DNA from: Elusimicrobiota bacterium
GTDB taxonomy: Bacteria; CG03; SLGR01; JBDRKX01
DNA length: 64,000 nt
Assembly: GCA_043813605.1 (NCBI GenBank)
Contig: JBDRKX010000047.1
Span: forward strand, 53,539 to 117,538
Reading direction: 5' to 3'
Shown: in pieces, positions 1-61,591 of the stretch
How positions within the stretch are numbered: the stretch's first letter is position 1
Layout: the number at the start of each line of letters is the position of its first letter
Program-made: the position numbers and the translations under genes
Notes under the pieces: generated by a model
What the model was told of the DNA's origin: nothing
Databases searched by the model: none
What the model saw: only the letters and a program-made list of their open reading frames with translations

Positions 1-300
1 GCCACAATACCTTTGAATTTCATCAGTTCGTCCCAGCTAAAAGGTTCTGCGAAATAACCCAAGGTTATATGCGGCATTCTTTCAGTGTGTTTTCCCCACT
101 CATCCCTTCTGGATGCTATAGGGTCCGTATTGTCTTCTGCAAGATATGACTGGACTTCCCAGAAAATACCCATTCCGATATCCCAGTTCAGTCCGCTCAC
201 TTCAGCTTCAAATGAAGGGGAGGCAATATCCGAAGCACGCGCCACTTCATCTTCCTTTATACCGCCCTGGGTAGTCAGGTGCAGTAATTCAGGTGCGACA
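1..300 (-). other. 2H phosphoesterase (LigT/CPDase-like) domain with paired H-x-T-x motifs; truncated by the window edge
   Basis: APELLHLTTQGG (verified at 241-300) and RMPHITLGYF (verified at 41-70). Confidence 0.45.
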
Positions 301-3300: not shown

Positions 3301-6300
3301 CAGAACTGCGGATTATTCCTGATCCCGTCATATTTTTCGCCCCTGAGCATGTCATGTAACAATTCAACTATCTTGCCTGTTAATGTTTTATTCCCGGAAT
3401 AATCAGCGCCCGTCTCTATTTCGAATGTCCGCCGGACGAGTGTTTCCAGGACGGCTATCCTCTGGTTTAAAAACTCTATTATTTCTTTTGCATCATCATC
3501 CGGATATCCGGCTTCTTTGATAAAAGCAGAAAAATTATTTTTAATTGATTTAAAATAATTTATCGATTCCTCAAGAGCCTGAATATCGTATGAGTCATGG
3601 GATTCAATACGGGAGACCACATTTGAGTAATAATAAAGAAAGTCCGCAAAATTCATGTTCGTATCGAATCCTGCATCGTTGTCAAAGATAACAGGGACAT
3701 CAAACACTCTTATCGAGTTTGAACCATGCTGGTCCCACTTGCCTATCAAAGCATTAAATACGAGTTGCGCGCTTCTGCCTTTCCTGGAGTCACTGTAAAC
3801 GAGTTCTTCCTTTTTATAGTCCTGGGCGACTCTTGTAAGGAAATATCCTTTTTCACTGCTTCCGACATTTTTCAATTTCCTTGATTCTTCGGAAGAGAGC
3901 GATCTTATCTCTACAGTGTCGACTCTGCCTCTGCCCAAAAGATAGCCCAGCAGTTCCCTTTTGTAATCGTTACGGTTTCTATGATTCCCTATCTTATAAT
4001 GCCCCCCGCGCTTCTTTACGAGAAAAACATTGCCTGCTTCATCAATAACAGCCGGAAACCCCCTGGGATTGCAGTTCTGCCCGAATTTCGCTTCAAGTTT
4101 TTTATTGCCGATCATGCTGTAGCTGTGCGGCGTATCAGACCTGACACCTGATTCTGCCAGTACCGTAATCGGCTCCGAATAGAAAGATATCATTTCCCTG
4201 GCGCGTTCTGCGATTGCTTGTGCGGATACTAAAGCTTCTGTTATCTCCTCATTACCTAGCAACGCATCTCTTATTTGATGATCCGGTATAAGTATTTCCC
4301 AAAGTTCATGACTCAATTTCTTCTCATATACCGTGAGATTGCCGCCTTTTTCTTCTGCCATACCGGCGTCTACGATATACGCTCTCATACCAAGCGATCG
4401 GGTCATCCCTATCATTATGTTTGACGGGTTCCATAGATCGTCAACATAAATACCGCTAAAACTCAGATCTCTCACCAACTGCCTGATAAGCTCGAGATTA
4501 TCCGCATTCAGATCTATACGCGGATCATTTATTGAATGGCCGTAAACCCTTTCTGATACTATATATACAAGCTTATCGGTACGGACGATCTCTATCGGAC
4601 GCGGCGCCAATCCTTCCTTGTAGAGCTCTTCGAGCATCCTGTATTCTTCTTTTGCACTGTTAAAGTAGATCTCTTTGTTAATTATTTTGATGACAAGGTC
4701 TTCATTAAAAGGATGTATGAATACAGTACCGTACTCACCGCTTTTTATGAGTTCGGCATTTCTTGATTCACCCGCTATCTCTACTTTAAGTTCGCTCTCT
4801 GCCTTTTCATAGGAAAGTTTAATTTCTCTAGCAGGTTTTGCCATCGCTTTTGCAGGTCTTTCAGCCATAAACTCTTCAACCTGCCAGGCAAGTGCTTCTT
4901 CCCTTTCTTTGTATGTCTTACCGTTTATCTCTTTAATAAAATTACCCAGTCTGCCTTGGAATATTACGTAGAGTGCATCTATGAGACGGTTTTCAGAATA
5001 TTTGCCGGTAGACTGGGAGTATGTGAAGAAATCATACAGGAATTCAGCCCATAATTCTGAATCAAGATTGCTTATGTTTTCCAGTCTACCTGCTATTCGA
5101 GGTGAGATTTCGGCTATTATCTCTTTTATTTCCGGGAATTTATCATCATATTGTTTTATCAGATTAGCGTAATACTCGCGGGGATATTGTATTTTTTCAT
5201 CAGACGCATTATTTATTAATTCCTCAAAAACGCTATCTTCCGGAGGAGCTCTCTCTTCCAGTAGTCTTTCCTCTCGCACTAACTCCAGTATCTCTTTCAT
5301 CACTGTTCTGAATCTATCAGCCGGGTCTACCGGTTTGTGTATTTTTCGCAGAGGAATAGCCACATGAACTATTGCTGAGCCGTTTCTCTGTGCATTCAGC
5401 GCCCAGGCGCCTTCCGCCTTATACGCTTTATCAGCCATCATTGCTGATAAAACAGCCGGATCCCGCACAAGATTCTTAATAAAATCAGCAGAAAATGCAT
5501 ACTCACCGCCGCCTGCCTGTCTGAATCGGCCGTATAACGGGTAAAGTACCAGATCCATCACGCCTGCATCATCATTCCGGTAATCCCTTATATATGAAGA
5601 ACCTACATACTGTTTGTGATCCCTATATACAGGCTCTAAATACGCTTTTACCCATTCGGGATCGATATTCTCTATATCGCCGTCAAATGTGACCCATGCA
5701 TCAGCTTTCAGGAGATTTACAATCTCCCAACCCAGCATCTGTCCCCAGAATTTTCCTTTGATCGCTCCCGGCTTGATCCATGATACCAGTTCGACATTAT
5801 CCACATTGTCTATTGAACTTCTGTCTATTTGCGACAATGTCTGTTTACTTGGTTTTTCTCCGCTAAGGACGATCATAGCCCTTTTCCCGGGATAATATTC
5901 AGCAAGTCCTTCCAATACCGTATCTATACCATGGTTTATCAACTCCAGGGGTTCTTTATTGTAATTAAGCTGTATGACAATGTCCGCTTTATCAATATCC
6001 ACCACTTTTCTCAATTGTTTTTGGCGGAATCTGCTGAATGTTCTTAATTTGTCTTTATAGTCTGAGAATCTACCCGCTAACTCCTTAGTATTGATCAGCA
6101 TTTCTTCTTCCGGGATCTTTCTGGGAAACAGGCCGGTAAAGAACCTTTTTATTCTCTGGTTTATGGACGCGAATAATGAAACTTCTTCTTTTTCCAGGAT
6201 ATATTCAGGTTCTATTTTTTCAAGTGCATCAACAGATTCTAATTCCACATAATCTTCGGCATCCACATAAAGCGGATTAGATGCAGTAAATTCCGAGAGC

Positions 6301-9300
6301 CTTCCTTTATATACAGGATATCCGGTATCTTCGGCATCACCTGCTTCTGCCCGTTTAACATATACTGCAACTTTGTCCAGCGGTATTTCCCACTTTATAA
6401 TATCGAATATCTGTTTTCTCAATGAGACCATTGCCGGATGCATGTTCTCAAAATGTTCTATTCCGTTAATCCTGATAGATATCAGTTTATCTCCGAATAT
6501 AGGCTCACCGGCTGCATCCAGCCCGAGTGAACCGTTTGAATCGACTATCTTATCATCCAACTGGCTGAATCCTATCAATTTCGCAATATACCTGGCTAAT
6601 CCTGACTCGAAATACCTGTGGAATTGTGCCAGGTAATCAGTCTCCTGTTTAGCACAGCTTATAGAAATCAAATACGGAAAATTCGGATGTTTGCTGGCTT
6701 TGCGCATCATATCCTGCCACAACTGAAGGTCCTTTGATCCCGGCCACAACTGTAATACAAGGTTGGTTCTGCCTGTAAAAGCCTTATATAATTTCCAGAA
6801 CAGGTACTGCCCGGTTAATGTAAGATAGTTTTTCGCGCCCCTGCTGTATCCGTTGAGAGCCGCATTCTGAATAAGTCCCGTCGCAAGTCCCGATTTAAAC
6901 TCATCCGGTTTCAGTTCACCATTTTCATCAAAGAACATAGTCGAGATCATATATGTGGTGAACAGGCCGCCCACGCTTATTCCCATCGGGATTATAATCT
7001 TCTTGTCCGCGAACAGGCCGTCGCCATTGTTCAGATGATCGTATGCCTGCCAGATATGTTCTGCTATGTTTTCCCGCAGGGTCTTTTTTATCGTCTTGAA
7101 TATCTGATCAGGATATGAATGTCCCGCAATGAGTACCGAATGGTTCTTAATAAGATCCAAGCCTGTTCCGCTTATATAGTATATACCGAAAAGCCTGTCA
7201 TAAGAGTATCTCTTGATCCACCCGTGTATAGCATCGAGCTCTATCTTTCCCTGTGTAAAGATTATCGCGGATTCAGTTCCGTCATCAAACCATAATTCAA
7301 GGTCCTCGTCTTCAACCTCTCTTTTCTGTCGAGGGGGAAAAACACTTGCAAATATTTTTTTGATACGGCTGGGTTTGGCAATATCGACCGGGTGGGTATA
7401 TGCAATGATATAATCTTCTACATACTGGACTGTCTTATTGAACGCTTCTATATCTCCGCGGGCATAATACTGCTCCAGGAACAATAGAATACGCTGCACC
7501 TTTGGATCCTCTTTCATTTCAGCATCTTCCACTTTCTTGATGATATCATTGACCTTCCTGCCCAGCATCTTCTTCCTGGCAAAAGTCAGCCAATGCCCGG
7601 GAGCTACAAACCTGAACGTCTTATGCCAAATCTCAACCTGTTTTTCTTCAATATTTACGAAATCGAGCTCATTATACTTCTTGGCGTTGTCCATGGCGTC
7701 CATGAACTGCCTTATTACCTGAGCCGTGCCCCTGTACCTTACATTATCCCCCTGGACATCTTTACCGACAATTACATTATCGTATTCCGAAACATATTGC
7801 TTCATTCCGAGAAAAACAGAGAGCAATGATTCGTCTTCAATATCCCACAGGAAACTGTCTGCCGTAGAATCACCCATTGCCAGTATCATACCTACGGTAT
7901 GTTTTCTCCTGATGAAATCCCTGACGCCGTCAGACTTGTTATAGAGGCTCATCTTCATAAAAGCATCACCGAAACTCGGATAGTACTCGTTTTTGGGAAG
8001 TTCTATTCCTCTTGCCGAAAGTATGCTCAATGCCTCGTTGAGCGCCATCTTTGTGTCTATACTGTCCAGTTTATTGTCATTATCAAGTATTACCAGCTCC
8101 GAATCGAATACCTGTATTTCCGTACTTGAGTATCTTTTTATAGCATTCTTGAATATCTGGTTGACATCGGTATAATTACCCGCTTCTTCCAATGCCGTGA
8201 CAGCTTTTTCAAACACATCCTGTCTGATGATCACATTATTAAACAGTTTCAGGTAAGCGATCGTGAACGCTCTTGCAATTTCAAACTGCATTTTAGGATC
8301 GAATGTTTTTTTTGTGTCTTCAGAAGTCTTTCTTTCAACTATTTTCTCTTTTCCGTTATATGTAAAAGAGGTATTCTGTGCGCCTGAAAGAGATATGATC
8401 TCAAGGTTCTCCATATACTTTTCAGTAACATTCTTTTTCATCAACTCCAGTATAGGCTTAATAACACGGGTATTAACCGCTTCTTTTTCAAATCGGATCT
8501 GCTTTTTGATGTGTTTTTCAGAATCCGGTGAATCGTATATCTTAACAGTCTTGATCTCTTCCGCCTGTGTACCGCTCACAAGAAGCACTTTTATTCCTGC
8601 TTCAAGTGCTTCTACGACAATTTTAAGGTTATCTCCTTCAAGCGGAGAAAGCTCGTCACGGGTAAGCGTCCGGTTAATATCAAGGACGATAGTCCTCAGA
8701 TCTACTTGTCTATCGGATTTTATCAGATTATCCAGCGCACTGGTTTTTTCGGTTATCGGTTCTTTACCCACGATCAACCGGCGATATTTTTTGGCCTGAA
8801 TAAATCTTACCCATGGACTTTCGGATATCTTATTAAAATACAATTCCTCGTCGATATCTGTGGCAGAAGGGATAATATTTACGGCACCGTCATCCACATA
8901 ATAGGCTTTCAGTTCACCGTTGTTTATCTTCCCTATGACTATATTATCCGGTTTCCAGCCGAAATCTTTCACATTTACATTGTTATCTATCAGCCCTCTT
9001 ATCAATCTACGTACCAGCTCCATTTCTTCCGTTGTCATCGAGCCGGCTTTTATATTCAATGTCTTTCCTACAACCCGCTCTGAGACAATATACTTGAAAG
9101 AACCGGCAAAACCTTTACTGATTATTCCGGGAGACAATCCCAATCCGGACAGTTTTTCAAGCATCCTTACTTCTTCAATAAAAGTGTTTTCAATACTGTC
9201 TTCGACATCCCACCTGCCTATTTTTATTACCCTGTCCGGATAGAACGGATGGACAAAAGCGCCTCTTGAAATATGTTCCGCCTCTTTTCTGATACCTTCC

Positions 9301-12300
9301 ATTTCTATAATCAGCCGGTTTTGACTGTCATCATATTGAAGAACGGGTTCTTCGGCAGGTTTTTCTGCAACTATTGCAAGCGGTATCTTTGGAAGGAAAT
9401 CGAATCTAGTGGCTATATGCCTGTTATAGAAATGTACAGATATGTTTCCTATGGAATGTAATAGCGCTAATATTCCGGCTACAGCTATTGCCGGAGTAAT
9501 CCCCTGACTTAAAAGAGTCAGGGCTACCGGTACAGCCATAGCCATCGAATGGACCGCAAGGATTATCCGGTCCAGCCGCGTAGCTTTTGCGGGTGGAGCG
9601 TTTATATCATAATACACCCGCCTGTGGGCGATGAGGAAGATGATCGTAGCAATAGAACCTGCGCCTAATGATGCCAGTACATTGTTGATATCAAAAGTGC
9701 TTCCAAGTAACGCCAGCCCGCCTGCAACAAATCCGAGCCCGTATGTCTCTGCGGCTTCGATCAATCTCCGGCCGATTATACTATGCACCCATCTTTCGGG
9801 CCAGTACGGACTGATTGCCAGCGGAGGTTTCCCGTCATATATCACTTCTTGAGAAAGCGTTTCCAGCCGCCGGGCTTCAAGGTATTCAAGTAATGTATGC
9901 CGTAACATAGATACTCTTTCAGCAAGGTCGACAGTAGTCTTGTTCAACTCGGCTATCAGAAACTTGACCTTATCTATATCCAGCCCTTCCCCGTTTTCTA
10001 TCCAATAATCAGAAAGGTCCCTGTTATCGATCACATTGTCTACTTCTCCCTTTATGACCTGTTCGAACGAGGTGAGTGTTTCCCTGATACTTCTCTTCCT
10101 GCCTGTCTCTGTAAGCCCGCGGTACATACGACGCGACAACCTTATCATACGGTCTTCTTCGAGATCATCAAAGTCCGCCTGGATAAAGAATTTCCTCACA
10201 CTTATACCTTCGGGTATTATCTCATCCATTTTCTTGCTTATCGCAAAAACGCCTTCAGCTATTACCAGTTTCTGTCCAGGCTGGAGTTTGACTGTTTTAT
10301 ATCCCACCCGTTTTCTCAGATTCCGGTCGTAATCAGGTATTTGGGTTTCTTTTCCTGCGAGAAGATCGCTGATATTCTTTTCAAGAAGTCCAAAATCATA
10401 AGGCCCGTTTTCAGTTGATTCAGCCACCAGGACAAACCTGGGATCGTTTTTATCAAAATTATATATACCCATACCTATTAACAGGTTACCCTCAGCTATA
10501 TCTTCGACCATCATGGTTTTCCCCGCGCCGGACAGGCCCCCGAGCAGTACAAGGCTGCCGTCAGGCATATCATCCGTAAGCCGCTTGAGTAAACCATCTT
10601 CATACGATATCTTTTGCGGTATTTTTGCAGCAGGTTTTACTTCTTCAGCTTCAGCAGTTTTTTCTGGAACTGCAGGATATTCTTTCCCTTCAGGCGTTCC
10701 CATAGTAACAAGTACTTTATGCCGTTTCCCGTCATTGACGAGGAGAATACCTTCTGCCGTTTCTATCCAGACTCCGTCCATTTCAATTTTTCCGATACCG
10801 GAGGAAACTACATCAGGATTTATCACTTCGATTTCATAGACAGATTTACCATATCTTTTTAAAACCTTAAACCCTTTTGCTCCCCACTCTTCGGGAAGCA
10901 CCGGATCGATAAACAGCCTGCTGCCGTCCCTGAATTTTAATCCCAGCATACTTTCCACCATTATCCTGAAGATCCAGCCGGCAGATCCCGTATACCCTGT
11001 CCATCCCGCCACGCCCTCGGGACTTATATCAGCAGCGGCGACATACGGCTCGCCCCTATAGTTTCTGTCCTTTGCATGTTCCGCAGGATTCAGAACCCTG
11101 TATACTTTCCATAATAGATCAGCGTATTTCCTTTGATCCTTGGAGCCGGTATCCTGACGCGCGATTATTGAAAGGGCCTGCACCATCCATACTATACCAT
11201 GGGTATATTGCCCGCCGTTTTCCCTGTCGCCGGGGTAATATTTTCCAAGATGCCCTTCCGGAAAATCTTCATTTCCGTTCACAGGTCTATCAAAAAGCCT
11301 TATGATATTTAGATTTTCATCATATAGTTCATCAAGCGCTGTCATAAATGCTTTTTTGGCAAGCTTTTCACCGACCGCACCGGATATTACGGACCAGGCT
11401 TGAGGTAAAGCAAATAGTTTTCTTATCCCGATACCCTTATCAGTAAAAGCCCTGATAAACCATCTCTTTCTCAGTCCTTTTTTAGCCAGTGCATATTTTT
11501 CTATATTTTTCGAGAGTTCACTAGCTCTTGATTTATATTCTCCGGCAGTTTCACTATCGCCTTTCTTTTCTGCCAGCGCGGCAAAATCCATCAGGGTCTT
11601 ATACAGAAAAAATGCAAGCCAGACACTTTCTCCTTTGCCTTTGATTCCTACTGCATCCAGCCCGTCGTTCCAGTCACCGGATCCTATCAAAGGAAGTCCG
11701 TGTTCCCCCATCCTTTTATTGATGACAAAGTCAATGGACTTTTTCGCGTGTCCATACACTGAAGCCGTCTGCTCTGGATCATCCGAAGAAATAAATTGCG
11801 TGACATAGTCTTTTTCATCCGCATTAAGAAGCCTGCCGCTCAGATACGGTATTTTCTCATCAAGGATATCCATATCACCCGTTACATCGACATAGTGCGC
11901 CAGGCCGTATGACAGCCACAGAAGATTATCCGATATACGTGTTCTTATTCCCAGGCTGACTTCCTTGCCATTTTCATTTATTCCGTAATCATGCCACCAG
12001 TGAAGGACATCTCCTTCAGGGAACTGCCTGGCCGCACACTTTATAAGATGTTCACGGGCCCTCTTGATATCTTCAGGAGTATTTGATGAAGCCAATGTCA
12101 GCACTGTCTGCAACTGATCCCTGAAACCAAAGGCACCTCCGGGCTGATAGAAACCGGTCTTTCCGAGATAATGCCATACAACTGCCTGATAACGCATCCA
12201 ATCTATCATCTTATTGAAGTTTTTATCAGGTGTTTCAACAACAAGATCATTCAGATAAGAATTCCAATTTCTCTGCCCTTTATTAAAAGTCTCACTAATA

Positions 12301-15300
12301 CTGGAAGGATCACTGTATTTTTTCATCAGTTCAGCAGCTCCGACTCCTGCTGCATCGTTTTCCGTCATGCCAAGTATATAAGTTACCCTGGACTTATACT
12401 CATTTTTTTCATTAAGGTTAAGCCTCACTGTTATCCCGGAAAACGGATCTGCCGCTGTCCTGAACACATCATTTCCCGCTGTAATAACAGAAGCGTCTTC
12501 CGCTATTACATTATGAAATGCTATCGAGTCAGGAACCAGCGCATCGGGATTGCGCGCCAATATTGTATCGTGTCTAACCTCAGTTTTCGTGTTATCTACG
12601 GCATTATTATAATCCCTGCTTAATGCCCACTTAAGAAAACTGCCTATCTCTATCTCTTTACTGCCCTCAGTTTTATCACCAAGATATTCGATATCGATAT
12701 CCCAGAATTCGACAGGCTCATTGTCGCCGGAGACGAACATCGTCATAGAGATCTTCCAGGTGTCTTTCTTATCATATATGTATTTGATATATCCCTGGCC
12801 TATTTCAACCTTATATACATTTTGATCCCTGTCTGGCTTAGGATTTGCAGCTATTGACCATTCCCGGCCGGTCTGGATGTCTTTTACAAGAACGCCTCTC
12901 AGAGGTTCTTCTGTAACTATATCCGGTTCGGCCGCAGTTACTCTCTTCTGCTGGGCATTACCATTAAAACTGAACACCGACCCTGCGGCGGTAGCGGCAA
13001 AACCGTATCCCGATTCATTGGCCACCACCTGGGTATAGGGTTTACCCGTTGCAAAAGGATCTTCTAATGTATAGGCGCGGCCGTCTTCTGAAAATATTCC
13101 GGCGGCTTTCTTTTCTTCCTTCGGTTCAGGGATTTCTCTTTTCATCCTCCATTGACGCCGGGCATGGGATGCGAACCAATCCATATATTTTTTCAAGCGC
13201 ACTTCCCGGAGAACTGCTTTATGAGTTTTTTCGCCTGCCGCCTGTTCCTGCTCTTTCAGATAATTATCATCCCTGTATTTGCCCAGCAGGCTTTTTACTT
13301 CCTTTCCATTTGAAGCCCTTCCGATCATAAATGTCATGCTTTTTTCACTGCCAGCCTTCAGTCTCATTTTCTTTGACAGGGCGCCGGCAGGATCCCTGAC
13401 ATAACTGGTCCCGGATATCAGTCCTTTTATCATTGCTATGGGTGATGACAGATTTCTAAGGCGCCCTATGAAGTTCATCCTGCTTTCAGCATGGCTGTCA
13501 ACTTGCCCGTCTCCGCCTATAGCGAAGAAGCCGAAAGGCTGCTGGTCCTGAGCATCTCCTGTAACCCTGCGGCGGGCGGTTATTACTTTCAGCTCTTTAT
13601 CGTAAGAAGCCCCTAACGTGAGTTTTCTGAATATAGTCGCATCCTTCCAGGCTACCATATGATCCATAATCCATTCAAGGTAACCGATAATATCCAGTTC
13701 CCGGTCAGTACCTGTATTGTTTATAAGCTGCACTTCCCATACCTCAACCGGATCATTCTTCGATACAAACCCGCTAACCTCAACTTTTATCTCACCTTCA
13801 GGAAGTTCCAGAGTACCTGTAATAATTATCTTTCCGTCCTGTACTTTCGTATCTAACGGCTTCAGCCCGACCGGAAGCATCTCACCGGTAGCCACGTCTT
13901 TTATGTAAAATATGCGGTTGTAATAAAGAGCTTCTTCTCCGAGCCAACTCGAACCGCCGCCTTCAGATGGAGCATGGATCGTATAACCGTGATGTCCTTC
14001 AAGAGCATCAGGCAGTTCAACTCCTACCTGCTCCTGCCTGTACTGGTATTGATAGTCATAGGCATTAGCTATATCGCTTTCAACCTTTTCTTCTTCTACC
14101 GCGTATTCGGATTGAGGCGTATTTAAAATCCGTTCAACGATACCGATTCGGGAGACAGCTGATAAGAGTGCTTTTTCTGTCTTTTCATCCAAACCTGCTC
14201 CTTCTATATCTTTTTTACTCCCTGTCACTATATAATACGGTTTCTCCTCCCGGATCAATCCTTTATCAATAAGGGCCGGTATACCTTCCAGTTCATCTTC
14301 AAATACAGCTCCCCTGTTAAAAGGATTGGTATGGAATAACTCCTGCAGATACCCGCCGCTCAGCAGATTGAATATTGAAATAGCTCCCATACCTGCGGAA
14401 TGGTGCGCATATATTCTGGGCGTTATTATTTTTGTTCCATCTTCTTTAAATTCAACCGACTCATAATATCCTACAGGTGTCTTCAATCCCATCTTTTCAT
14501 ATTTTCTTAAAGCCTTAAGGGATTCTTCCGAAGCCCACGGAGCCTCCATCTGGGCCGCATACGGAGAATATACTTTACGATTGATAACTTTACCGTCAAT
14601 GTTCTGCGCGTTACCGGCGACACCTATCGGACCGTAACCGACCCAATCCCCATTATCCTTCGGATCATAGGCTGTCTCGGATTGTCCAAAAACACCTTTC
14701 ATGGAGGCCGCAAGTTGTCTCCGGGTTGTTACAGAATGGACTTTGCTCAGCATTTCGGAATCATCTTCCCGCATAATGATCCCGGGAAGCTTGACTTCAA
14801 ATGATGAGCCGTGCCACGGCAGAGCAGGGACACCGGCTCCTTCCTCATTGGTACCCTTGAGAAATCTCTTCAAGTGTTTCCAGTGATGCTCCGGCAGCTG
14901 GCCTTCCATGATTCCAAGCATACTCGCTATCCTGTTTTCACTTAAAAGAAGGTCATAATAACCGTCACTGCCATGAAGGCCACTTTCAAAACCTTCAGTT
15001 TTCCTGATGTCAGCGTGCTGCCCGACGAAATGAAGGAGTCCGTTTTCTTCATTATAAAGCCTGTCGAACCGCATATCCCTGACTATTTTCAATATCCGCG
15101 CCTGGAGTTCGGGATCGGATATACTGCCTTCCGCCATTAACATAAATGCCGCGAAATTACCGTTATCGACCGTAGATATGGCCGCTACAAAATCATCGGG
15201 ATGGATGATCTTTTTCTGTTTATTATTTCCATTCTTATACCAGCTATCCTCGTATACATATAAATATCGCGTATTGTACCAGTTATATAGATGTCCCTGG

Positions 15301-48300: not shown

Positions 48301-51300
48301 CTCCGTGAATATACATAATCAAGAAGGTTTGTGTGCACATATATCGAGTCCGTACCTGAATGACCAAGTACTCTTCCTTCTGCAAACTCATCACCGCTTG
48401 AGAGAAGAAGGACCAGCCTACGGCTGCTAAGTGTCTCTGATTCCGATTCTACTGACAGTTCTAGAAAAAGTTTCAGTTTTTCTTTGAGTTTATCAGGGCC
48501 TTTACGCAGGATATATAACTCCAGCTCTCTTTCAGCAAGTCTGCGGGCATCTTCATCCTTAAAATAGAACGACTCCGTAAGATTTGCGGCTGTTTTCGCA
48601 TAATCATCGCTGAACATATGATCGATATCTGACGACAGGATACCGGGTATAAGCGCAATCGCCCTGCCAGAAGTTATTGCGTCCAGTACTGCCCCGTCAA
48701 CATCTTCCTGTATTACGCCTTTTTTCATAAGGTTCTTTTCTGTACCCTGTGCCAACTGTCTCTGCTTGAAGAGTTCCACCCGATTCAAAGCCTTTCTGAT
48801 ACTGCTCCCCGCGCCGACGCCTATTTTCCTCTCTTTTCTCATAGACTCTTTCAGTCCTTTTAAACGGCTCGTAAGTATCTTGCGTATATCTCTGAGTTCC
48901 GGATGTGTTATCAATTCTTTATCAGCCAGTACCGATTCGATCTTTTGTACAAGTATTTCCGCTTTCCTGTCCCTATAAGTGATCTTATCAAGGAACCCTG
49001 TCGTTGCTTCGCCCGGACGCATATTCCTTGTCACACTCAGGAACCGGTTTATTACTTCCCCGTCCGGAGTATGTCCTGACCATAACCATTCTCCCCTAAG
49101 ATCAGTCACATCCAGGTAAGGCATGAATTTGCCCAGATAACGCTGATACATCTGGAAAGCTTTCATAAAGTCCTTTGTCCCTGTTTCCATAATACCGTCA
49201 TACCCCACAACATAGAATTCTCCTTTGATCTGGAGTAAAAGAGCCGGATGAAGCGTGTTCTCTGACCCGAGTTCGGTGTCCGCTGACCTGCGGACTTTTA
49301 TGATATATCCCTCGACATCAGGTATGACATCTACTATATCCGCAATAAAATCGAGCATATGGTAATACAGGGCCATATACCTGGGATTCAGTGAAGTAAT
49401 ATCGTCTATAGCCCACTGTATATACCTTTCCAGATTTTCTTTTCTGTACTGTCCCAGATTCTCATACCATAAGTTAAACTCTTCCTCTGATCTCAATTGG
49501 GCTATTTCATCAAGTATTTTCTGTATCTCCTGGTCGGCATAATGTGCGCCCTTTGGTAAAAGAGCAAGAAATTCACGGGTAAATATCCTGTCTTTGAAAA
49601 GGTTATAAATATCCTTATATACGCCTTCGTGTTTCTTATAATGGTCTATTAGCTTCATTGCAAAATTAACATACGGCGCTATATCTTCGCCATGTGCATC
49701 AAGGAATATTGCCTTCCAGTCATCTGAGAGTATCTCATCAATAATATCATTGAGCTGCAGATAAGCCTCAAGGAGCCGGCGCTGTTCATCGCTAAGACTT
49801 TCGAGCCAGCCCTGGAAATCGAAGGACATATCCGCTCCCAGCGTTCCGGATATCTGTTCTATGATATCCGGAACCAGAGCCAGTATATCTGATATATCCG
49901 CATCTGGTAGAACTCCACTTGCTTCGTCAGCCATATCCTGCATTCCGTTCTGAAGATATACAGCAAGCCACATTGCCTGACTACCGGTCATGTTATCTTT
50001 TACAAAACTTATAAGTTCTTCCTTTGAACTGATGTCAAGCGCCCCTATATCCGTATCCGCCTTTATACTGTCAAATACGCTGCCCATATGACCGGCAAAT
50101 CCGGATATAACTCTATCATGATCAAACTTAAACCCTTTAAATTTGTTTAATAAATAGTCAACAAGCCATTTGGCATGTTCTTCACCAAGTTCTTTTGCCC
50201 AGTCTTTAAATTCATCCAATGATAACCTGTTGATCTTGTCTTCTATATCGTTTATAAATCTTTCCCGGTCAGCAGGGCTCAGCCATACTTCTTCAGGTTC
50301 TTCTTTGGCATAACTCATCCTCGGCCTTTCTACACGAGTCGCGACTTCCCGCATCGGTTTTTTTGCGGGAAATGAAAACCTTATCTGAAAACCTATCCTG
50401 TGCTCCCTGTCCGCGTCCGCAGCCTGTGGATATACTTTTTCGATACTGCTTCCAAAAAGCGTCGTTTCAATATTAGTAGACATATATCTGGCAAGTCCTC
50501 TTATTCCTCCGAGGACTTCAGTCTCGTCGGCAAACATCGGGTGCTCGCTGTCACGCAGCCTGTATTCAGCAAGAAGACCCAGTTTATCAAATCCGGGTAT
50601 AAAAGAGTCCCCCATAATACCGCCCTCAAGCCTGAGCTCGTCATATACGGGAGTATCTTCATATTCTATCTTTGTCGAAAGATCATAAGCATAAGCCTTA
50701 CCTTCGTAACCGAACCCTAATGTCCTGCTCTCCGGGAAGAGTTCAGTATCCTCCAGAGGATCAAAATCTATAAGTTCCAGGACATTACTGATAAACAGTC
50801 TTTCAGTTTCAACTGCCCAGAGTTTGAGAGTATCATCAGTAGTAGGCCTGTATACAAACATAATACCCTTTTCAAGATTGGCATATCCCGAGTGAAATCC
50901 TAAAAGTTGTGTATCTCCTGAATGGTAAGCGAAACTGTTTACAGCCGCTCCTACTGCCAGCGAAAAATTTCTCCAGTCTAGCGGAATACCGGTTTTTAAA
51001 GAGCCGCTCAACACATTAAGCTCTTCCTGTTCAAACGGACTTTTCAGATTAAGGTCTATATGAGAAGCTCCCAGATCAAAATCAAAATTTAAATAATGAA
51101 ATATACTGCCGTCAAAACTGACTTCCACCATACCGTACGGACTTTCCAGTATATCGCTTTCTCCCTCAGGCCCGGCAAGACCGCCTATTCTGAAAATAAT
51201 ATCGCCTTCCTCAAGATAAAATACATTTCTACCTAAAATATTAAGATTGCGCACACTTAAAGTAGGATCGAGATAAGCGTTCATCCCGTAAGGGCCAAGA

Positions 51301-54300
51301 TAGAATTCCGAACCTATATCGAATTCCGGGAAAGGGATATCCAGTCTGGCATCTATGTTAAAACCACCGGAAGCGAATGGAGAACCAACAGGCCATAATA
51401 CCATTGCCGTTATTATTATTATGCTCAGGAACCTCCTCACAGCCGGCATTATCTTTTTTGTAAATATCCATTTCAGTACCCGAAGGTTTTCAGGTATTTG
51501 TTTGGCTTCCCGGGCAAGCACCTTTTTCCAGAATCTGCTGACTATCCTGAAATCCTCAGGGCTCAGGTTTTCTATATGCCTGCCGTAGATTATGTCGTTA
51601 TCTTCATGTTCCGATATCAACCGGAGAGCGGTAATATCATCTTCTGTTTGGACAGCTATCAGAGCATTGAAATGATAATGGATCGAATTTGTGGTTTTAC
51701 CGCCATGGCCAAGGACTTTTCCTTTTGCGAAATGGCCTTTGGGATTCAAATGAACAACGAGCGTACGCTGTTGGAGCGTTTCCTGTGAAGTCTTTCTGTC
51801 TTCTCCTCTTAAAAGTCTGACCTTGTTCTTAAGTTTACTGGCAAGTACTGTGTAGAAGGGTTTCCTTACGGTTCCTATAAGGACCTTGAGCCGGTCCCTC
51901 AATATATTTATGTCCGAAGTCTCCATCCTTGCCAAGTGCCGTTTGAGTTCCTGCATGGACCTGATCCTGGCCCTGTCGTCCTGATCAAATCCTTTTGTCA
52001 GGTTATACGCCAGCATCTTTGGATCAGCAAACCATCTATCTATATCTTTCGCCTTTATGCCCGCAGGAATAGCTACTGCCCAGCCGTACTTAACATTGTT
52101 CCGTATATGTTTTTCGAGCCATTTAAGTTTTACTCCCTTTTTCATAAGGTTCTTGCCGGTACCGCCTTCCTCAGCTTTCTCGAGCTTTATCTTCTCTATT
52201 TCAGCGGCATCTCTTTTTACTGTTATCCTCTCATTTGCCCATCGAAGAGCTTCTGCCCAGAATCTCTGAGATTTACTGCCATTATAGAGCCCTATATGCC
52301 CGGCGTTAATTATTCTTCGGTAAAGGTTTTCCGGTGGTGTGCTCACTTTTTCCGCCATAGCAAGACTCTGTCCCTGCCGGTTCTGCATAAATTCAAATAT
52401 TCCCCTGAGCTGATCTTTGCCTGATGTTTTAATAAACGGATCATCCGATGAAAGAAACTCATCAAATGCAATAGTGAACATCCTGTCTTCAACGACAGCT
52501 ATCTTGCCGGGCTCCCTGTTAACATTGCCTTCACCGTCATCAGAGATGAGTTTATTGCGTTTTAGAAAATCCCATGTAGTATCTGCTATCTCTGCCTTAT
52601 TTACTGTCGCAGGCGGTGTTACATCGTCTTTTGTGCCTTCGAACATAATGACCGGACATTTTATCCTGGAAAGGTCTACCAGTTTCATCTCATGACCTAT
52701 TTGTATCTCCATCTCGCCTTTATAGAGCTGGTTACCCTTGAATATCTTGTCAATACATTCCAGGTACCAGAGTGACAGGTTGTTAGTTGTATAGAACCAT
52801 TTGATAAAATGTTCCGCCCGGGCAACATATTTCTCGTCATCGATATTATCTACCAGGTTCTGCCAGAAATCGATCTTCTTTGATTTACCTCCGTCAGGAC
52901 CCATGTTAAGGAATCCTTCAAGCTGGCTCTCGCCATCATAGATATTCTCACGGCCGAACCCGTGTACCAGCCAGTTAAAAAAATCTTCCGGAGCTTCTTT
53001 TGATACCCTCGTTATATCGTTATCTCCGAGTGTAGCGTGAAGCGGAGTGCCGGCAATATACAAGGCTTCGACTTTTTCCGGATATAATGCGGCTACTATT
53101 GCCGCTACCCAGCCTCCCTGACAGAGACCCGTTAACTGAACTTTACCGCCAACAGCGTCTATTGACTCGACTACATTGTGTACCATGTCGGTAATCAGCT
53201 GGATATCGTCCGGAGTCGCGCTCTTCCAGTCTATAGAATATGTAGGCTGGCCTTCGTTCTGGAATGTCTGAACAATACTCTTACCGTCAGCATCATCTGC
53301 TATTGTAGAGCGATGACCGGAATTCGGCGGTACTATCAGCATCGGGATCCGGCTCATATCTACACTGTGGTCTTCTGATACGGTGAAATCCCTCAGCATG
53401 AAACTGGATTTATCTATTATTACTTCGTTATCCGTAAACCATTCGGGCTCCTTAAATTCCACCCTATTAAGAAACTCAAGAGCTTTTTTTACTTTACGGA
53501 AATAATCGTTATACGGTGCCCAGAACCCTACCCATGGTTCATATACCGACTGGCGCCATAACCTTTGCAGATCTTTCGATTCTTTGGTCCAGGGAATAAA
53601 GTATTCTACAAAAGGAAATCTGGAAAAGAACCTGCCGAGATTCCTGCGGCCGGCTTTATACATATCCTCATTTTCTTTGCGAAGACGGGCAGCTTCAACA
53701 GCTTTTTCTTCATCTGTCAGCTTGATGCCCGCCTCGACTTTGGCCCAGAGCGGTCTAACCAGGGTATCAAACAGGTCTTGCCGGATATCCTTTTCGTGAT
53801 GGCCTCTTATAATATCACCGTCTTCATGTTCGAGTATAAGGGAAAGCGTGGTCTTTTCATATTCCGTTTCAACCGCATCGAGCATGTTTATGTGCAGATA
53901 TATGGATTCCCGGCCGGCGCCGCCGTGGCCGAGTATACGCCCTTCCGAGAAATGGTTTCCTTCAGAAAGCAGAACTACAAGCCTGCGGTTTTTAAGAGTA
54001 TCCTGTTCAGTCTTCTGTCTTGAATGAAGAAGCGTCCGCAACCGGTCTTTCAAATGCTCGATGTCAGAACGCGCCAGGTACTCCGTCAGAGCTTCTTCTG
54101 CCCTCTTACGCGCCCAGTCAAATTCATAGTCCATTGAATCAAGCAGGTTCCGGGCTGTTTTGTTCAAATCGTCCGCAAAGAGCGATTCTATGTCTGTCGC
54201 TGTAAGTCTTGCAGAAAGGCTTATTGCAAGTCCTCTGGTTATACTGTCTTCTATTATCTTATCTGCTTCTTCCGCAGTAACACCGGATTTCATCAGGTTC

Positions 54301-57300
54301 TTGCCGGTACCCAATGCTTTTGAGATCTCTGTCTTTTCTTTTTCTATGACTTCAGGAATTTTGCGAGGAACCTTAACAGGAATTTTACGAGGGATTTCAG
54401 GGGAAACAGCTCCTGCTGCGCGGAGAGCGAGGTTTTTTAGTACATCTTTGAATCCGGATATTATCTCTACAGGTATGTTAATAACACCTGTCGCAACAGA
54501 GTCAGGATTCATCAGTTTTGCGTTACGGATCAAAACCTGATCTTTATGAACAGGGGTATTTGTAAGGAGGTACCCGTTAGTTTTTATTCCTGCCGCATTG
54601 AGAAGAGTCTGTACACTCCTGATACTCTTACCGTCATCAGTCACATAGTCATCCAGGTGCCCCTGTCCGCAGAAGACAGCGATTCTTGCCGAAGGATCCT
54701 TATTGTGAAGTTTCTTTATCTCCCTGGCAAAATACCTGTTACGGCCGTTAGTGATTAACCTTTCTCTTATTCTGGGTATTGCAGCAATAGCATCCGTATC
54801 AAAGAAATGGTTTAATCCGGGTATCATCTTCTCAACTATTTTCCAGAAAAGCATAAGCGGCATATCCATATTTACTATTTTTATACCGGCGGCGCTTGCC
54901 GCTTCATATATCAATCGATAGAATTCAGGGCCGGATTCCCATATTCTCTGCTCACTGAAACCATGTCCCTCAAAGCAGAGGTACTTAACTCCTGATTCAT
55001 TTAAATCCTCCATAATACTCATCAGGTACATCGGGTGAGTCATGTTCTTATGATAGTCGCCGAATATCACTACGCGGGCATCATCTATAAGTTTTTTTAC
55101 ATCAGCGCTCTCTATTTCGGTATTCCTGTAGAAATCCGCCGCTTCAGGATCGGCACCTTTAAAGAGTTTTTCAAAGAGCAATACCCAGTTAACCCTCTCA
55201 CTTGCCTGCACCATATCATAGAATCCCCGGAAACTGCCGGATAAGAGATTCTCTTTCTCTGTTGTTGAAAGACCTGCTAACTTTTGTGTCAGTTTACCGA
55301 AAAAGATCAGTCGGGAAAGCCGAAGCGCTGAATTGGAACTCCTGTAATCATATATTGACCCGCTCCAGATATCCGTTATCTTTTTTATATCTTCTGTTTT
55401 TAACGAAGGCAGCCTGTCTATTATCTCCTGAAGAGAAGGGTCCAGTTCAGCCAGTTCTTTAAGGGAATCATTGATTATCCTGTAATCACCGGCAGGATTT
55501 ATAGCTGTCTCGACCATATCAGAGATGACTTTTACAGGTATTGTCACCGGACCAACCGTATCTATCAGCCTGTCTTTGATAACAGGCAGTATCCTGTCAG
55601 CCGATATCTCTTCTTTTTCAATACCCGGTATCTCTTCTTGTGGAACGATATCAGCTTTAATAGCTTTTACGATGATCATACCAATGCCTGTTGCTGTCCC
55701 GTCAAGCACACTCTTGAAAAAGTCACTATCAATAAACTGATCGAGAGCCGTCACATCACCTCTCTGTCTCTGTTCGATATTTACATTATTCAGGAATCCG
55801 GAATCCCGCGATTTCCTCACGACAAACGGTATAACAGGATTCTTTATGGCACGGAATTCTGCCTTCAGTTTGCCTTCCCCGGCAGATTTCTCAAGTAACG
55901 CGTTCACTACATCCGTTATCCTTCCTTTCTGTTTCCCCGGTATCCCCCTGAACTTAGGATTGATCATGATCCTGTCAATTATAAGCATATCAGGATCATC
56001 AACCAGGTTCACGCCGCCTATATCGATATTTTCCGCATTGTATATCCTGTGATTATAAAGCCCGGCCGCCATAGGGACGAACCTGAGACCGTAAGTCTCG
56101 ACTATAAATCCTTTCTCAGATAATTTAACTATCTTTTCAGGATATAATCCCTCTTCTTTTTTTATAATTTCCTGCAGCTCAAACAACGGAATAGAGTCAA
56201 TATGTTTCTTTTTGAGGTGCTCCTTGAACCCTTCCGGCGTCCCGTCAGGTTCAATACCATAATAATTGTATCTTTCCGTCACATAATCTATCAGCAATTT
56301 TAAAAATAGAGTTTTTCTCGCAAAACCTTCAGGCAGTTCATCTTCCTGGGCTTTCATTATGACTGACTTGTGTATGACAATGACATTTTTATCATCTATT
56401 CTTGCTATTTCTGCCAATCCCAAAGACTCTTCTTCCTTGAAGATCTCAGTCACAAGTTCTTTTTTACTGATCTTTACTTCAAAATCGGTCAGTTCAAAGA
56501 ACATCGACATAAACAGATGCAGCCCTTCAGTACCCAGCTCTCCGGTACTCATGAGATCATCCATATCGTCAAAAAGAGAGCTCGTGGTCTTACCTGCCGT
56601 AACAGGTATAGAAATAGAAGCTACTGCTTCTTCATGATGTTCAAGAAATTTGTCGATAAACAGGGAGATATTGTTTATATCGGTCCTTTTCACTCCAGCA
56701 GATTCTATCGTATTGTAAAAATCTTTAAGGATAACCGGATGCTCTGCCAGCGGCCGGCTCATCAGTTCCGTCATGATATAGATCATATCTTCTTCGACAG
56801 GATATTTCTCGACAAGCTCGATTTGAGCAGTAGTAAACGCTACCAGCTGTTCTAATCCGAGGTTGAGAGCAATAAATTCGACGATTTTTAAGTCATTACG
56901 GTCAATAAGGTTTTTCCTGAAAAGTATGTTAAGTATATCTATGATCCGCTCAAAACCGGGAGCAGTAAAAGTACCCGGCATATCATCCGGATAAGACTCA
57001 TATAAACCTTTTTTTATTATTTCGTGAATGATCTTTAGATCTTTGTCCTGGATATAGTTTTCTCTTGCAAGATTGTTAAGTATAAGAAACGTGCGGTAAT
57101 CTTTTATAAACAATGCGTATATAGAGTTCTTTTTTTGCCTTTCTATGACATAATCCATCATAAGTGTTCCATTACCCTCAAAATCTCTGCCTCTTATCAT
57201 CTCATAGGTCATCTCTGTATCAGAATCAAGGTTTTTAAGGTTCTGCATGATAAATGAGACTTTTTCTTTGAGTTCATTACCCGTATAACCACTGTCAGCG

Positions 57301-60300
57301 GTCATTTTCCTTATATCATCTTCTTTCAATTCCTTAAACTCAATGATCGATTTTTTTATTTCTTCTATACTCAAATCTTTATATAATTTGCTCGGCCTGT
57401 TCTCCCATGTGTTGAACAGGAATTCATTAAAACCCATCTGCGTGTCAAAAGCCACATCATGATCGAATCCGACAGGTACACCGTCAACCATAACCATATT
57501 GCTGTCATGCGGATCCCATTTGCGTATCAGGACATTGAATACAAACATAGCCGCTGCCGCTTTGTCGTAATCATTGTGTACGAATTCTCTGTATCCGGCG
57601 CCAACTGTCCTCGTAAGATAGAATCCTTCTTCACTGCTCCCTATCCCGAATTGTCTCAGATTTTCTGCTTCATCATTACTTATCGTCCTTATCTCCGTCG
57701 TATTTACCCTGCCTTTTCCGATAAGGTAAGCGAGCATCTCTCTCCTGTAGTCGTTCTTGTTCTTGTGATATCCATGGCCGCCGGACTTGAGCTTTTTTAC
57801 TATAAAGTTTTTATTGCCTTCATTTACCTGAAACTCCCAGGTGCCGTCCTCGATCGGATTTTTGCCGCCATAGACATATCTCGGTTCAGGTTTCTCTGCC
57901 GGTACCTCTTCTTTAAACTCTTTATCTATCTTCTTCAGGATTTCTGCCGCCGCCTGACTGATATTCCCGTTTTCTTCATAGAACCCCCGCAGATACTGTC
58001 TAATATAAGCCTGCTCTTCAGGATTTACGCTGTCGTGATACTGGATCATCCTGTCCGTTTCGCCGGACACAAGTATTCCGGCTAATTCCTCTTTATACGG
58101 ATTCGCTATTGTCTCTTTCAAACCCCGGGCATCAGAGAAAAGCAGGGCGATTCTAGGGTCACCTTTTAAAATAAGTTTAGACAGACTGTCGCCTATATCC
58201 TGAGAATAGATCTTTTTATTAAGTTTTATATCTATACTGCCGAGAGTGCTGTTCATGCCGAATATGACTGCCGGGGTACCCATTTCAGCCATCTGAGACG
58301 CGTCCACATGGTCAGAAGCATGAATGATCTCTGTTACCCGCCTGATACCGGGAATTACATATCCCGGTATGCGGTCAGGATGGTGATGGTAGAATACCGC
58401 AAGTTTTATGGAAGCAGGGATCTTTATTCCTTCTGTTTCCAGCTCTTTTTCGATGATAGCTACCGAATCGAGCGCATGGCCCAGAACATCTGTACCGCTT
58501 TCGTATTCCCTGTAATTCTTTCTGGTCTTTGATATATCATGTATCAAGGCAGCTATCTCAAGCGCAGTCTTCTCCTGTCCGGTGATACCCAGTTCTTCTG
58601 ATATTATTGAAGAGTATTCCCTCACACGCTCGATATGGCGATGCCTGTGTTCTATACTCCCGAAAAGCGCGCGGATCTTTTCGGATATTACGGAGACATC
58701 TCCGTTTATGACAAACCGTTCATTTTCAGGTGTATTATTATATTCGGCTATCACTTCGGCGATCCTGGGTATTATATCCGGATTTATTCCGCTCGATGTC
58801 ATCATCCTGGATATCTGCGCGATCTCTTCTTTTATCGGATCAGCTATCTCTGCCGGCTCCACTACTTCAACCGGCGGTTGTTCAACAGTTTCCGGTTCTT
58901 TTTCAGTTTTTTCAGGTAAAATCTGTGGGCGCTGTATTACACGGGCAGGTCTTTGCAGAAACTGTCTGTAAAGAAAATAGCTCATCCCTATACCGCCTAT
59001 CACTCCGGTTGCAACAGCGGAAACTGCCATAGCTGAAGCCGCCAGAGCCCATACAAGTACTGCTGAAACAGCTACTATACCGAGCGCGATCAGGACATTC
59101 CTGTATTTTGCAGTAAATCCCGGTTTTCTTCTTTTCTTTGTAAGATCACGGATATCCGCCGGGCGGGCGGAGACAGGTGTCTCTTCTATTTCACCTTTTT
59201 CTATCTGTACAAGAAGTTTTTTCAACCGTTCTGATTCCGTATATGTTAATCCTTTCTCACCCATACCTATCTCGGCATTATAGCCCTGGAAGAGTCTGAC
59301 AGTCTGGTCGCCCGACTCTATCAGATCACTCAGTATTTCTTCTATCCGCGTGGTTTCAGCAGATATTTCTGAACCTAGAGCAGGAAACATATCAGAATTC
59401 CTCATAATAGCCGTAACCGCATACGGATTGTATATATACAGTCCGTCGGATGTTTCCAGCAGTTTAATATCGTTGCCTGTACTCTCTATCAGGGTTTTTA
59501 ATGCTGTTTTCTCTGAAGCGGTTATCTCCTTCGAAACATCTACCCTGCTGAATGGCCTGGTTTCAGGCGAAATCACCGTTATCATGGCATCTGGATTGAG
59601 GACAATTTGTGTTTCCTGGTCTTTCTGTGCATTTTGCAGTTTGGTGAATGCTTCTCCGGCATCGTGCATTATTTTCTCTTCAAGGAGCCCTTCTGCTACC
59701 CGGACAGGTATTATCTCTACATCATTTTCACCTTTGACACCTACCGTAAACACCTCATTACCCAGGCTCAACGGTAAAATGGTTTTCCCGTTATAATCGA
59801 CAAATTCGTTCAGATGGAAGATGAATTTATCTTTTTCTCCTGCAATCGCCCTGTTTTTAGTGCGCATTTTATTGAACCTGTTCCACCATTTGAACAGAAA
59901 ATCGTCAACCTTATCGGCAAATCCGGCACTCTCATACCCGGATTCCTTCAGTTCCTGTCTTATAAAAGCGCCCAAACCCCTGACAACAACGCGTTTTTTG
60001 AACCATTCCATCGGCTGGAACGAAGAAACTGCAAGTTCTCTCATAAAAGCTTCTTCAAAACTCAGTTGCTCACCACCCCTGAGAAGCGCATAATACCTGC
60101 TCCGGTCCTCTTCGGTATATGCGGTTACCCTCGGTTTGATCACGGTATATGAAATCCCCTCTTTTTTAAGCTGTTCGCTGATACCGTATGAATGAAAACC
60201 ACCGGCTATCATGGCCAGTATCTTATCCTTGTCGTCAGAACTGCTCACAAATTTCTCTACAAAAGTCTCATCCCTTTTGCATGCCGTATCGTAAAAGACC

Positions 60301-61574: not shown

Positions 61575-61591
61575 TTCTGTTTAAAATACAT

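Follow-up and report, generated by a model that had tools for sequence, protein, structure and literature searches.

Giant proteins that combine many metabolic enzymes in one chain are known from Omnitrophota and related bacteria (West-Roberts et al., 2023, bioRxiv 10.1101/2023.11.21.568195; Nielsen and Lui, 2026, bioRxiv 10.64898/2026.06.07.730766), and a 'kinase / phosphotransferase cluster' has been described in one of them (Nielsen and Lui, 2026). New families within the kinase superfamily are also reported regularly (e.g., PMC9758233). Here we describe the kinase-like modules of a giant protein encoded in a stretch of 64,000 nucleotides (nt) from an Elusimicrobiota bacterium (assembly GCA_043813605.1, contig JBDRKX010000047.1, positions 53,539 to 117,538), hereafter the window, to which all coordinates refer. 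One giant gene occupies the window almost wholly. Its minus-strand frame is free of stop codons between nt 61580 and nt 3, comprises 20,526 codons, and exits the window at the left end, and its earliest ATG lies at nt 61574 (at least 20,524 codons from there), with a hydrophobic N-terminal segment next to it. We delimit the giant open reading frame (ORF) as 3..61574, with the 3' end beyond the window, from the stop-free frame, the start codon, tiled Pfam matches, and hydrophobic segments; amino acid (aa) n begins at nt 61580-3(n-1). The protein holds six kinase-like modules that belong to three sequence families, denoted P (two copies), M (one copy), and Y (three copies).

The initial annotation of the window had listed five such modules of two types, two called PI3/PI4K-like and three called Kdo/RIO-like. 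All five are real and are paralogous within each type, and every motif quoted for them is found in the giant protein, but a sixth module (M) of a third type is also present. The count is six modules in three families, and not five in two, because the interval 24650-24050, previously taken as a single Kdo/RIO-like module, contains M as a separate domain. This interval covers the C-lobe of M (aa 12311-12400; catalytic loop at nt 24608-24552) together with only the N-lobe of the first Y copy, Y1, which itself lies at nt 24359-23688.

Alignment of the six modules reveals the same catalytic constellation in each, namely an N-lobe Lys (in M placed by pattern only), a catalytic-loop Asp, an Asn 5-7 residues further on, and a DFG-like Asp. 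A helix-C Glu or Asp was found in the P and Y copies, and none was identified in M. The catalytic loop reads D-x-H-x-x-N in P and M and D..(N/K)P.N in Y, and the DFG-like Asp occurs in the contexts FDH/FDN, IDNG, and the Y-type D-x-G (IDTG, VDDG, or VDAG). Regular expressions for the catalytic loop and DFG region match the kinase modules only within the 20,526 residues, and shuffled sequences yield 0.02-0.055 chance matches. Neither these expressions nor hidden Markov models (HMMs) built from alignments A1, A2, and A3 detected any copy beyond the six in the giant protein. Among the library HMMs that had been proposed as a check, Y1 exceeds the threshold of YrbL-PhoP_reg, which belongs to the PKinase clan, and weak matches to APH were obtained; the PI3_PI4_kinase, Kdo, and RIO1 thresholds were reached by no module. 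Kinase-fold matches and catalytic residues, the joint absence of which the initial annotation had named as fatal to its proposal, are thus clearly present. A bilobal kinase fold (for P and Y) and the catalytic residues, with the reservations on the Lys and helix-C acid of M given above, place the modules in the protein-kinase-like superfamily (Pfam clan PKinase). Profile-profile comparisons (hhalign) of P with M and of P with Y were not significant, and we therefore keep P, M, and Y apart as three families that have only the fold in common. A word-indexed protein search with the P alignment, the Y alignment, or M+Y1 (the latter at E up to 10) returned no matches, in a collection that seems not to include the giant protein itself. 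Patterns drawn from its modules likewise recovered no identical locus in genome_contigs or metagenome_contigs.

The two type P modules lie near opposite ends of the window, both on the minus strand. P1 spans 57141..57830 (aa 1251-1480) and carries K1262, E1281, D1356-x-H1358-x-x-N1361, and D1373, and P2 spans 3363..4049 (aa 19178-19406) and carries K19189, E19209, D19283-x-H-x-x-N19288, and D19300. They are paralogous over aa 1252-1474 and aa 19179-19401 (phmmer E 1e-47, 42% identity). The intervals originally assigned to them, 57950-57350 and 4050-3680, do mark paralogous modules, but their extents require correction to 57830-57141 and 4049-3363; the second interval ended halfway into the domain. 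No Pfam or NCBIfam model matches P1 or P2 even at permissive E-values (Pfam E up to 5), and this includes PI3_PI4_kinase (PF00454, gathering threshold 27.1 bits), which also matches none of 66 aligned type P members.

A type P profile searched against 1.84 billion representatives recovered at least 196 proteins or clusters (the latter at the 50% identity level) with E <1e-3, 82 of them <1e-10. Of the five top relatives (E 1e-49 to 1e-56), one has 514 aa and the other four range from 1,955 to 6,014 residues. Large proteins encoded in metagenome-assembled genomes (MAGs) of Elusimicrobiota, Omnitrophota, and Auribacterota are the closest carriers. Public names of these closest carriers follow their other domains (AAA ATPase, GT9, UPF0489, M3 peptidase, LOG, GNAT) and never refer to a kinase. 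More than half of the matches listed (80 of 150) are no longer than 330 residues, and most of these appear to be standalone proteins of ~270 residues. Alignment A3 comprises 66 type P sequences (a genome-contig scan used a 7-sequence alignment). In P1 numbering, D1356, N1361, and D1373 are invariant in A3 (each 66/66), and K1262 (61/66), H1358 (60/66), and E/D1281 (59/66) are nearly so. The 66 members have no significant match in Pfam or PADLOC; noise-level Pfam matches, below threshold and in one or two members each, were to HipA_C (0.069), HipA_2 (0.048), and CotH (0.023). Type P is thus a sequence family without a model in the libraries searched (Pfam, NCBIfam, and PADLOC).

The AlphaFold model of P built on A3 has a mean predicted local distance difference test score (pLDDT) of 92.1 and a predicted template-modelling score (pTM) of 0.90. 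Its secondary-structure elements follow the order seen in kinases: N-lobe strands with the Lys, a helix with the Glu, a long helix that leads into the D-x-H-x-x-N loop, and two short strands ahead of the Asp. Structure comparison of the model ranked PI4K type II alpha highest (scores of 12.7 and 11.9, 187 residues aligned), followed by CtkA (11.9), CotH (11.1), MavQ (10.2), PI3K alpha (10.1), HipA (10.0), actin-fragmin kinase (9.6), and Fam20 (9.3). Foldseek likewise placed PI4KII alpha at the top (E 6.8e-4, probability 1.00, template-modelling score 0.50), ahead of CtkA, HipA, and PI3K gamma. With PI3K/PI4K catalytic domains as its closest solved structures and a D-x-H-x-x-N loop, the model falls within the PI3/PI4-kinase-like structural group. 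The fold is assigned by structure comparison, as a search of PDB sequences with the type P profile yielded no kinase match. Type P, as modelled, adopts a PI3/PI4-kinase-like fold in a compact version resembling PI4KII, CtkA, and CotH, and the label 'PI3/PI4K-like' holds for the fold and not for membership of the PI3_PI4_kinase family.

The gene neighborhoods of seven standalone type P proteins revealed no consistent pattern. One of these proteins, P0030 (272 aa; L004, 6001-6819), is encoded 160 nt downstream of a reverse-transcriptase (RVT_1) gene (L004, 4586-5842), and no RVT_1 match is on record among the called neighbors that were looked up for the six other standalone members. A role for type P in defense systems was considered and dropped, given that the upstream gene of a second member has no similarity to the RVT_1 gene and that no PADLOC model applies.

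The three type Y modules are likewise encoded on the minus strand. Y1 (23688..24359, aa 12408-12631) carries K12462, E12474, D12544, N12549, and D12566; Y2 (8733..9374, aa 17403-17616) carries K17453, E17470, D17539, N17546, and D17563; and Y3 (4224..4841, aa 18914-19119) carries K18965, E18979, D19048, N19054, and D19071. Pairwise phmmer E-values range from 1e-24 to 1e-30 at ~40% identity (Y2 to Y1 and Y3, 1e-26 to 1e-29). Invariant across the three copies are a Gly-rich loop G..G.VF (shortened in Y2), the Lys of 'VIKI', the helix-C Glu, D-x(2-4)-(N/K)-P-x-N, and (I/V)-D-x-G. Y1 matches Pfam YrbL-PhoP_reg (PF10707) at 44.3 bits (E 2.1e-11, profile positions 4-152 of 185), above the gathering threshold of 31.5 bits, and the scan of a 1000-aa tile gives 39.5 bits. 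Y2 and Y3 score 22.4 and 22.6 bits, and since these values fall short of the threshold, the two copies are tied to PF10707 only through their paralogy with Y1. PF10707 is listed within the Pfam PKinase clan (PMC9758233).

Weak NCBIfam matches of the Y modules are to kinases without exception (YrbL, NleH, Kdo kinase, LanL/LanKC kinase domains, MAD6 kinase, and APH(3')); for Y3 specifically they comprise MAD6 kinase, LanL, KdkA, and APH(3'), along with a weak match to Pfam APH. Scores against the YrbL equivalog NF007671 (19-20 bits, cut-off 227) and KdkA PRK01723 (13-16 bits, cut-off 142) are so far below the cut-offs that orthology with YrbL or with Kdo kinase (KdkA) is rejected for the Y modules, and the Pfam RIO1 and Kdo HMMs do not match the Y modules. 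When the three-sequence Y profile (A2) was compared with PDB, only weak matches were recovered, among which CK1, TTBK, and PknB align exactly at the catalytic loop and DFG, along with unrelated proteins. Structure comparison of a two-domain M+Y1 model returned PknB (10.8), NleH1 (10.4), OspG (10.3), Bud32 (10.0), ArkI (9.9, 23% identity), APH(2'') (9.6), RIO1/RIO2 (9.4), and WaaP (8.2); the aligned part is most plausibly Y, because M is unstructured in this model. Collectively, these observations identify type Y as minimal protein-kinase-like domains of the YrbL kind, for which 'Kdo/RIO-like' is apt in fold and size but not as a statement of family membership. To our knowledge, YrbL itself has no known substrate.

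M lies at 24381..24968 on the minus strand (aa ~12205-12400), with a putative K12218 assigned by pattern, D12325-W-H-G-E-N12330, and D12343 in 'IDNG'; its catalytic segment reads 'MDWHGENILID...LIAIDNGESF'. It matches NCBIfam TIGR03843, the SCO1664 family (33.1 bits, E 3.5e-8, 166 residues), at a score far below the cut-off of 172.4, which indicates from sequence comparison that M is homologous to this family and is not a member of it. Pfam PI3_PI4_kinase matches at 24.6 bits (E 2.8e-5) over profile positions 132-178, the catalytic-loop/DFG segment, short of its gathering threshold, and Fam20C matches at 16.3 bits (E 0.008), also below threshold. All 12 weak matches of M in PDB are to Fam20C, Fam20A, Fam20B, PI4KIII beta, or Tel1, in register at 'AAVYRLSRILGFTNVPPV' and at 'MDWHGENILID..IAIDNG'; M aligns in register with the 'AAFHLDRIL..VPP' helix of Fam20C and with the catalytic loop and DFG of PI4KIII beta. 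Motifs that we take to be those of PI4KII alpha ('AVFKPK', 'NIVPR', 'DRGNDN', and 'IDNG') would extend the resemblance to the N-lobe, and we treat this as a lead and not as a test. M is probably a third kinase-fold family related to SCO1664, PI3/PI4 kinases, and Fam20, its assignment being less secure than those of P and Y.

The modules are arranged in part as pairs. Only ~7 residues separate M from Y1, to which it is directly fused, and P2 starts 58 residues downstream of Y3, such that M+Y1 and Y3+P2 form two pairs of an atypical and a minimal kinase in opposite order. Y2 begins ~20 residues past a transmembrane (TM) bundle at aa 17301-17382, which is the first copy of a duplicated module resembling a four-helix membrane bundle. 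P1 lies ~160 residues downstream of an HD domain, and M and Y1 lie downstream of a Bac_transf domain.

Beyond the kinase modules, a Pfam scan of the giant protein in overlapping tiles of 1000 residues identified an HD domain (aa ~981-1092), a DUF3141/PHB-depolymerase-type alpha/beta-hydrolase (aa ~2727-2991), GDE_N and GDE_C (aa ~6698-7346), GH77 (from aa ~7509), LOG (Lysine_decarbox; aa ~9323-9430), Metallophos (aa ~10603-10802), a Rce1-like domain (aa ~11441-11538), the polyprenyl-phosphate sugar transferase domain Bac_transf (aa ~11685-11856), Glucosamine_iso (NagB-like; aa ~12963-13191), GH130 (aa ~14082), HAD (aa ~14954-15151), the supersandwich and catalytic domains of GH94 (aa ~15889-16880), and, below threshold, PRK (aa ~17061-17162), all encoded on the minus strand. 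The initial annotation had named two calcineurin-like phosphoesterases, an HD domain, an HD-like region, and a P-loop kinase as accessory domains; one HD, one Metallophos, and the sub-threshold PRK were recovered, and a second calcineurin-like module was not found in the giant protein by the Pfam-based search. Hydrophobic clusters that resemble TM segments occur at aa 9-27, 829-864, 3377-3402, 4494-4706, ~11392-11712, 17301-17382, and 20066-20145. A large part of the protein has no Pfam match, and Cys accounts for 0.2% of its residues. With more than 10,000 aa in one ORF, a membrane anchor, many distinct enzyme domains, and no dominant repeat, the giant ORF encodes a membrane-threaded multi-enzyme protein that falls into the 'multi-enzyme metabolic' class of giant proteins (Omnitrophota/Elusimicrobiota type).

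Several further features of the locus were observed. GC skew and AT skew on the plus strand are uniformly negative across the whole window, and the giant gene is therefore G-rich and A-rich in its coding strand. Between Bac_transf and M, aa ~12030-12110 (nt ~24969-25500; '..GIKGRGTFLTETLL..') resemble a GNAT acetyltransferase by eye only, and Pfam is silent there at E up to 0.01. An upstream ORF (62284-63999, minus strand, exiting the right end of the window) has no Pfam match and has a ~210-residue module in common with three copies in the giant ORF, recognized by sequence similarity on the minus strand at 53739-54302, 51516-52154, and 48186-48740 (35-41% identity, E 1e-22 to 1e-36); because of this common module, the upstream ORF seems to be another carrier of the same module set. 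The hydrophobic four-helix-like module is present at 9396-9824 (aa 17253-17395) and again at 1113-1523 (aa 20020-20156), and an Elusimicrobia MAG also encodes it in giant ORFs (L002 and L003). The P module, LOG, the membrane module, and the N-terminal region are common to the window protein and the giant ORFs of that MAG, in which the Y module was not found. Many non-kinase modules are also duplicated internally at 28-50% identity, including the pairs aa 13976-14406 and 14485-14927, aa 4901-5425 and 5469-6021, and aa 8256-8400 and 10063-10205, and one module occurs in three copies (aa 5055-5155, 5622-5730, and 11258-11356). Old module duplication appears to account in part for the growth of the giant protein.

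The paralogy of the modules, the fold of P and Y, and the retention of the residues of active kinases (with the same reservations for M) are results of the analysis presented here, and the assignments of fold and active site have good support. Together, sequence and predicted structure make it likely that the giant protein bears six modules of the protein-kinase-like superfamily, in three sequence families, that act as ATP-dependent phosphotransferases. Each module would bind Mg-ATP between its lobes and would transfer the gamma-phosphate onto a hydroxyl group, and catalysis would take place on the cytoplasmic side of the membrane. The initial annotation had suggested sugars or lipids as possible targets of phosphotransfer, which is plausible from the context. 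We lean tentatively toward carbohydrates, or lipid-linked carbohydrate intermediates handled by the neighboring modules, as possible substrates, because the surrounding chain is dominated by glycan enzymes (GDE, GH77, GH94, GH130, Bac_transf, NagB-like, and HAD), because Y2 is tethered so close to the TM bundle, because M and Y1 lie downstream of Bac_transf, and because the superfamily includes compact sugar kinases. Examples of the latter are KdkA, WaaP, Fam20B, and WbdD (see also PMC9758233). Several observations weigh against the phosphotransferase reading or its glycan leaning. M is below every family threshold, and the M half of the M+Y1 model, built on three sequences, is unusable (pLDDT ~30). 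The Y half depends on the same three sequences, and no Y-type relatives were found outside the giant protein by the word-indexed protein search or by two metagenome pattern scans. The cytoplasmic location is assumed. Finally, the nearest structures of Y (PknB, NleH, OspG, Bud32, and RIO) and several of those of P (CtkA, CotH, and HipA) are protein kinases or ATPases and not sugar kinases.

These structural neighbors also bear on what else the modules might do. Protein substrates are nearly as likely as glycan or lipid ones: the modules could be regulatory protein kinases that phosphorylate Ser, Thr, or Tyr of the giant protein or its partners and so switch the neighboring enzyme modules. The best structural neighbors of Y (PknB, NleH1, OspG, and Bud32) and the protein kinases among those of P (CtkA, CotH, HipA, and actin-fragmin kinase) are consistent with this, and the phosphatase-type HD, Metallophos, and HAD domains in the same chain could undo such phosphorylation. 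However, the Y modules, at ~200 residues, are without the usual peptide-binding C-lobe, a lipid kinase heads the structural neighbors of P, the surrounding domains are those of carbohydrate metabolism, and no phospho-acceptor motif or partner was identified. Minimal kinases often function as ATPases, and with Bud32 and RIO, which largely act in this way, among the nearest Y structures, some or all modules might instead be ATPases, nucleotide-binding switches, or pseudokinase scaffolds. This is unlikely, given that the catalytic residues, including the catalytic-loop Asp, are kept in all six copies, and pseudokinases usually lose at least one of them. Even less probable, and already largely refuted by the AlphaFold model of P, the structure comparisons for P and Y, and the conserved columns of A3, is a chance motif or low-complexity resemblance among modules that do not have a kinase fold. 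The absence of Pfam and NCBIfam matches for P1 and P2, of PDB sequence matches for the P profile, and of hhalign links from P to M or Y would fit such an explanation, but the phmmer paralogy, the alignments, and the specificity of the regular expressions indicate that the observation of kinase modules is real and far beyond chance. Returning to phosphotransferases that act within the chain, a more speculative extension, which we consider doubtful as a whole, is that P is an unrecognized and widespread minimal PI4K type II-like family, found both as standalone proteins and as a recurring module of giant proteins in Elusimicrobiota, Omnitrophota, and Auribacterota, that P, M, and Y carry out the phosphorylation steps of a membrane-tethered assembly line for glucan, aminosugar, or lipid-linked sugar intermediates, and that the giant protein would accordingly be a covalently linked metabolon and not a set of unrelated domains.

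Giant multi-enzyme proteins of uncultivated bacteria are mostly unannotated, and six predicted catalytic modules are now added to the map of one of them. Because giant multi-enzyme proteins with kinase content, YrbL-like domains, and PI3/PI4-like domains were already known, the new element is confined to the unannotated type P family, which adds a new family to a known superfamily. No description of the P, M, or Y families was found in the two reports on giant proteins cited above (bioRxiv 10.1101/2023.11.21.568195 and 10.64898/2026.06.07.730766). An HMM built from A3 would permit type P to be annotated in metagenomes. If the kinases do act on glycans or lipid-linked sugars beside the glycoside phosphorylases and transferases of the same chain, this would support the view of giant proteins as physically linked pathways. 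The finding leaves the understanding of kinases in general unchanged and represents a useful annotation rather than a new kind of biology.

Compared with described kinases, type P resembles PI4K type II alpha (PDB 4pla/4hnd/4hne), CtkA (3akj), CotH (5jda), MavQ, and HipA in its fold, at an identity of just 12-15%. Its core of ~230 aa is much smaller than that of PI4K type II alpha and is without the lipid-binding and palmitoylation inserts, and unlike PI4K type II alpha, CtkA, and CotH, it sits in a giant polypeptide or forms a standalone protein of ~270 aa. The Y modules are minimal kinases like those of YrbL-PhoP_reg (PF10707), KdkA, RIO, Bud32, NleH, and OspG, but differ from YrbL/KdkA-type kinases in that they are present in triplicate within one protein. 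M, in turn, differs from the SCO1664, PI3_PI4_kinase, and Fam20C families in scoring below the threshold of each and in being fused directly to a YrbL-like module. The protein that carries them matches the giant proteins of the Omnitrophota type, in that both are encoded by a single ORF exceeding 20,000 codons, are anchored in the membrane, and are tiled with many different metabolic Pfam domains, including those of sugar metabolism, LOG, HAD, and HD.

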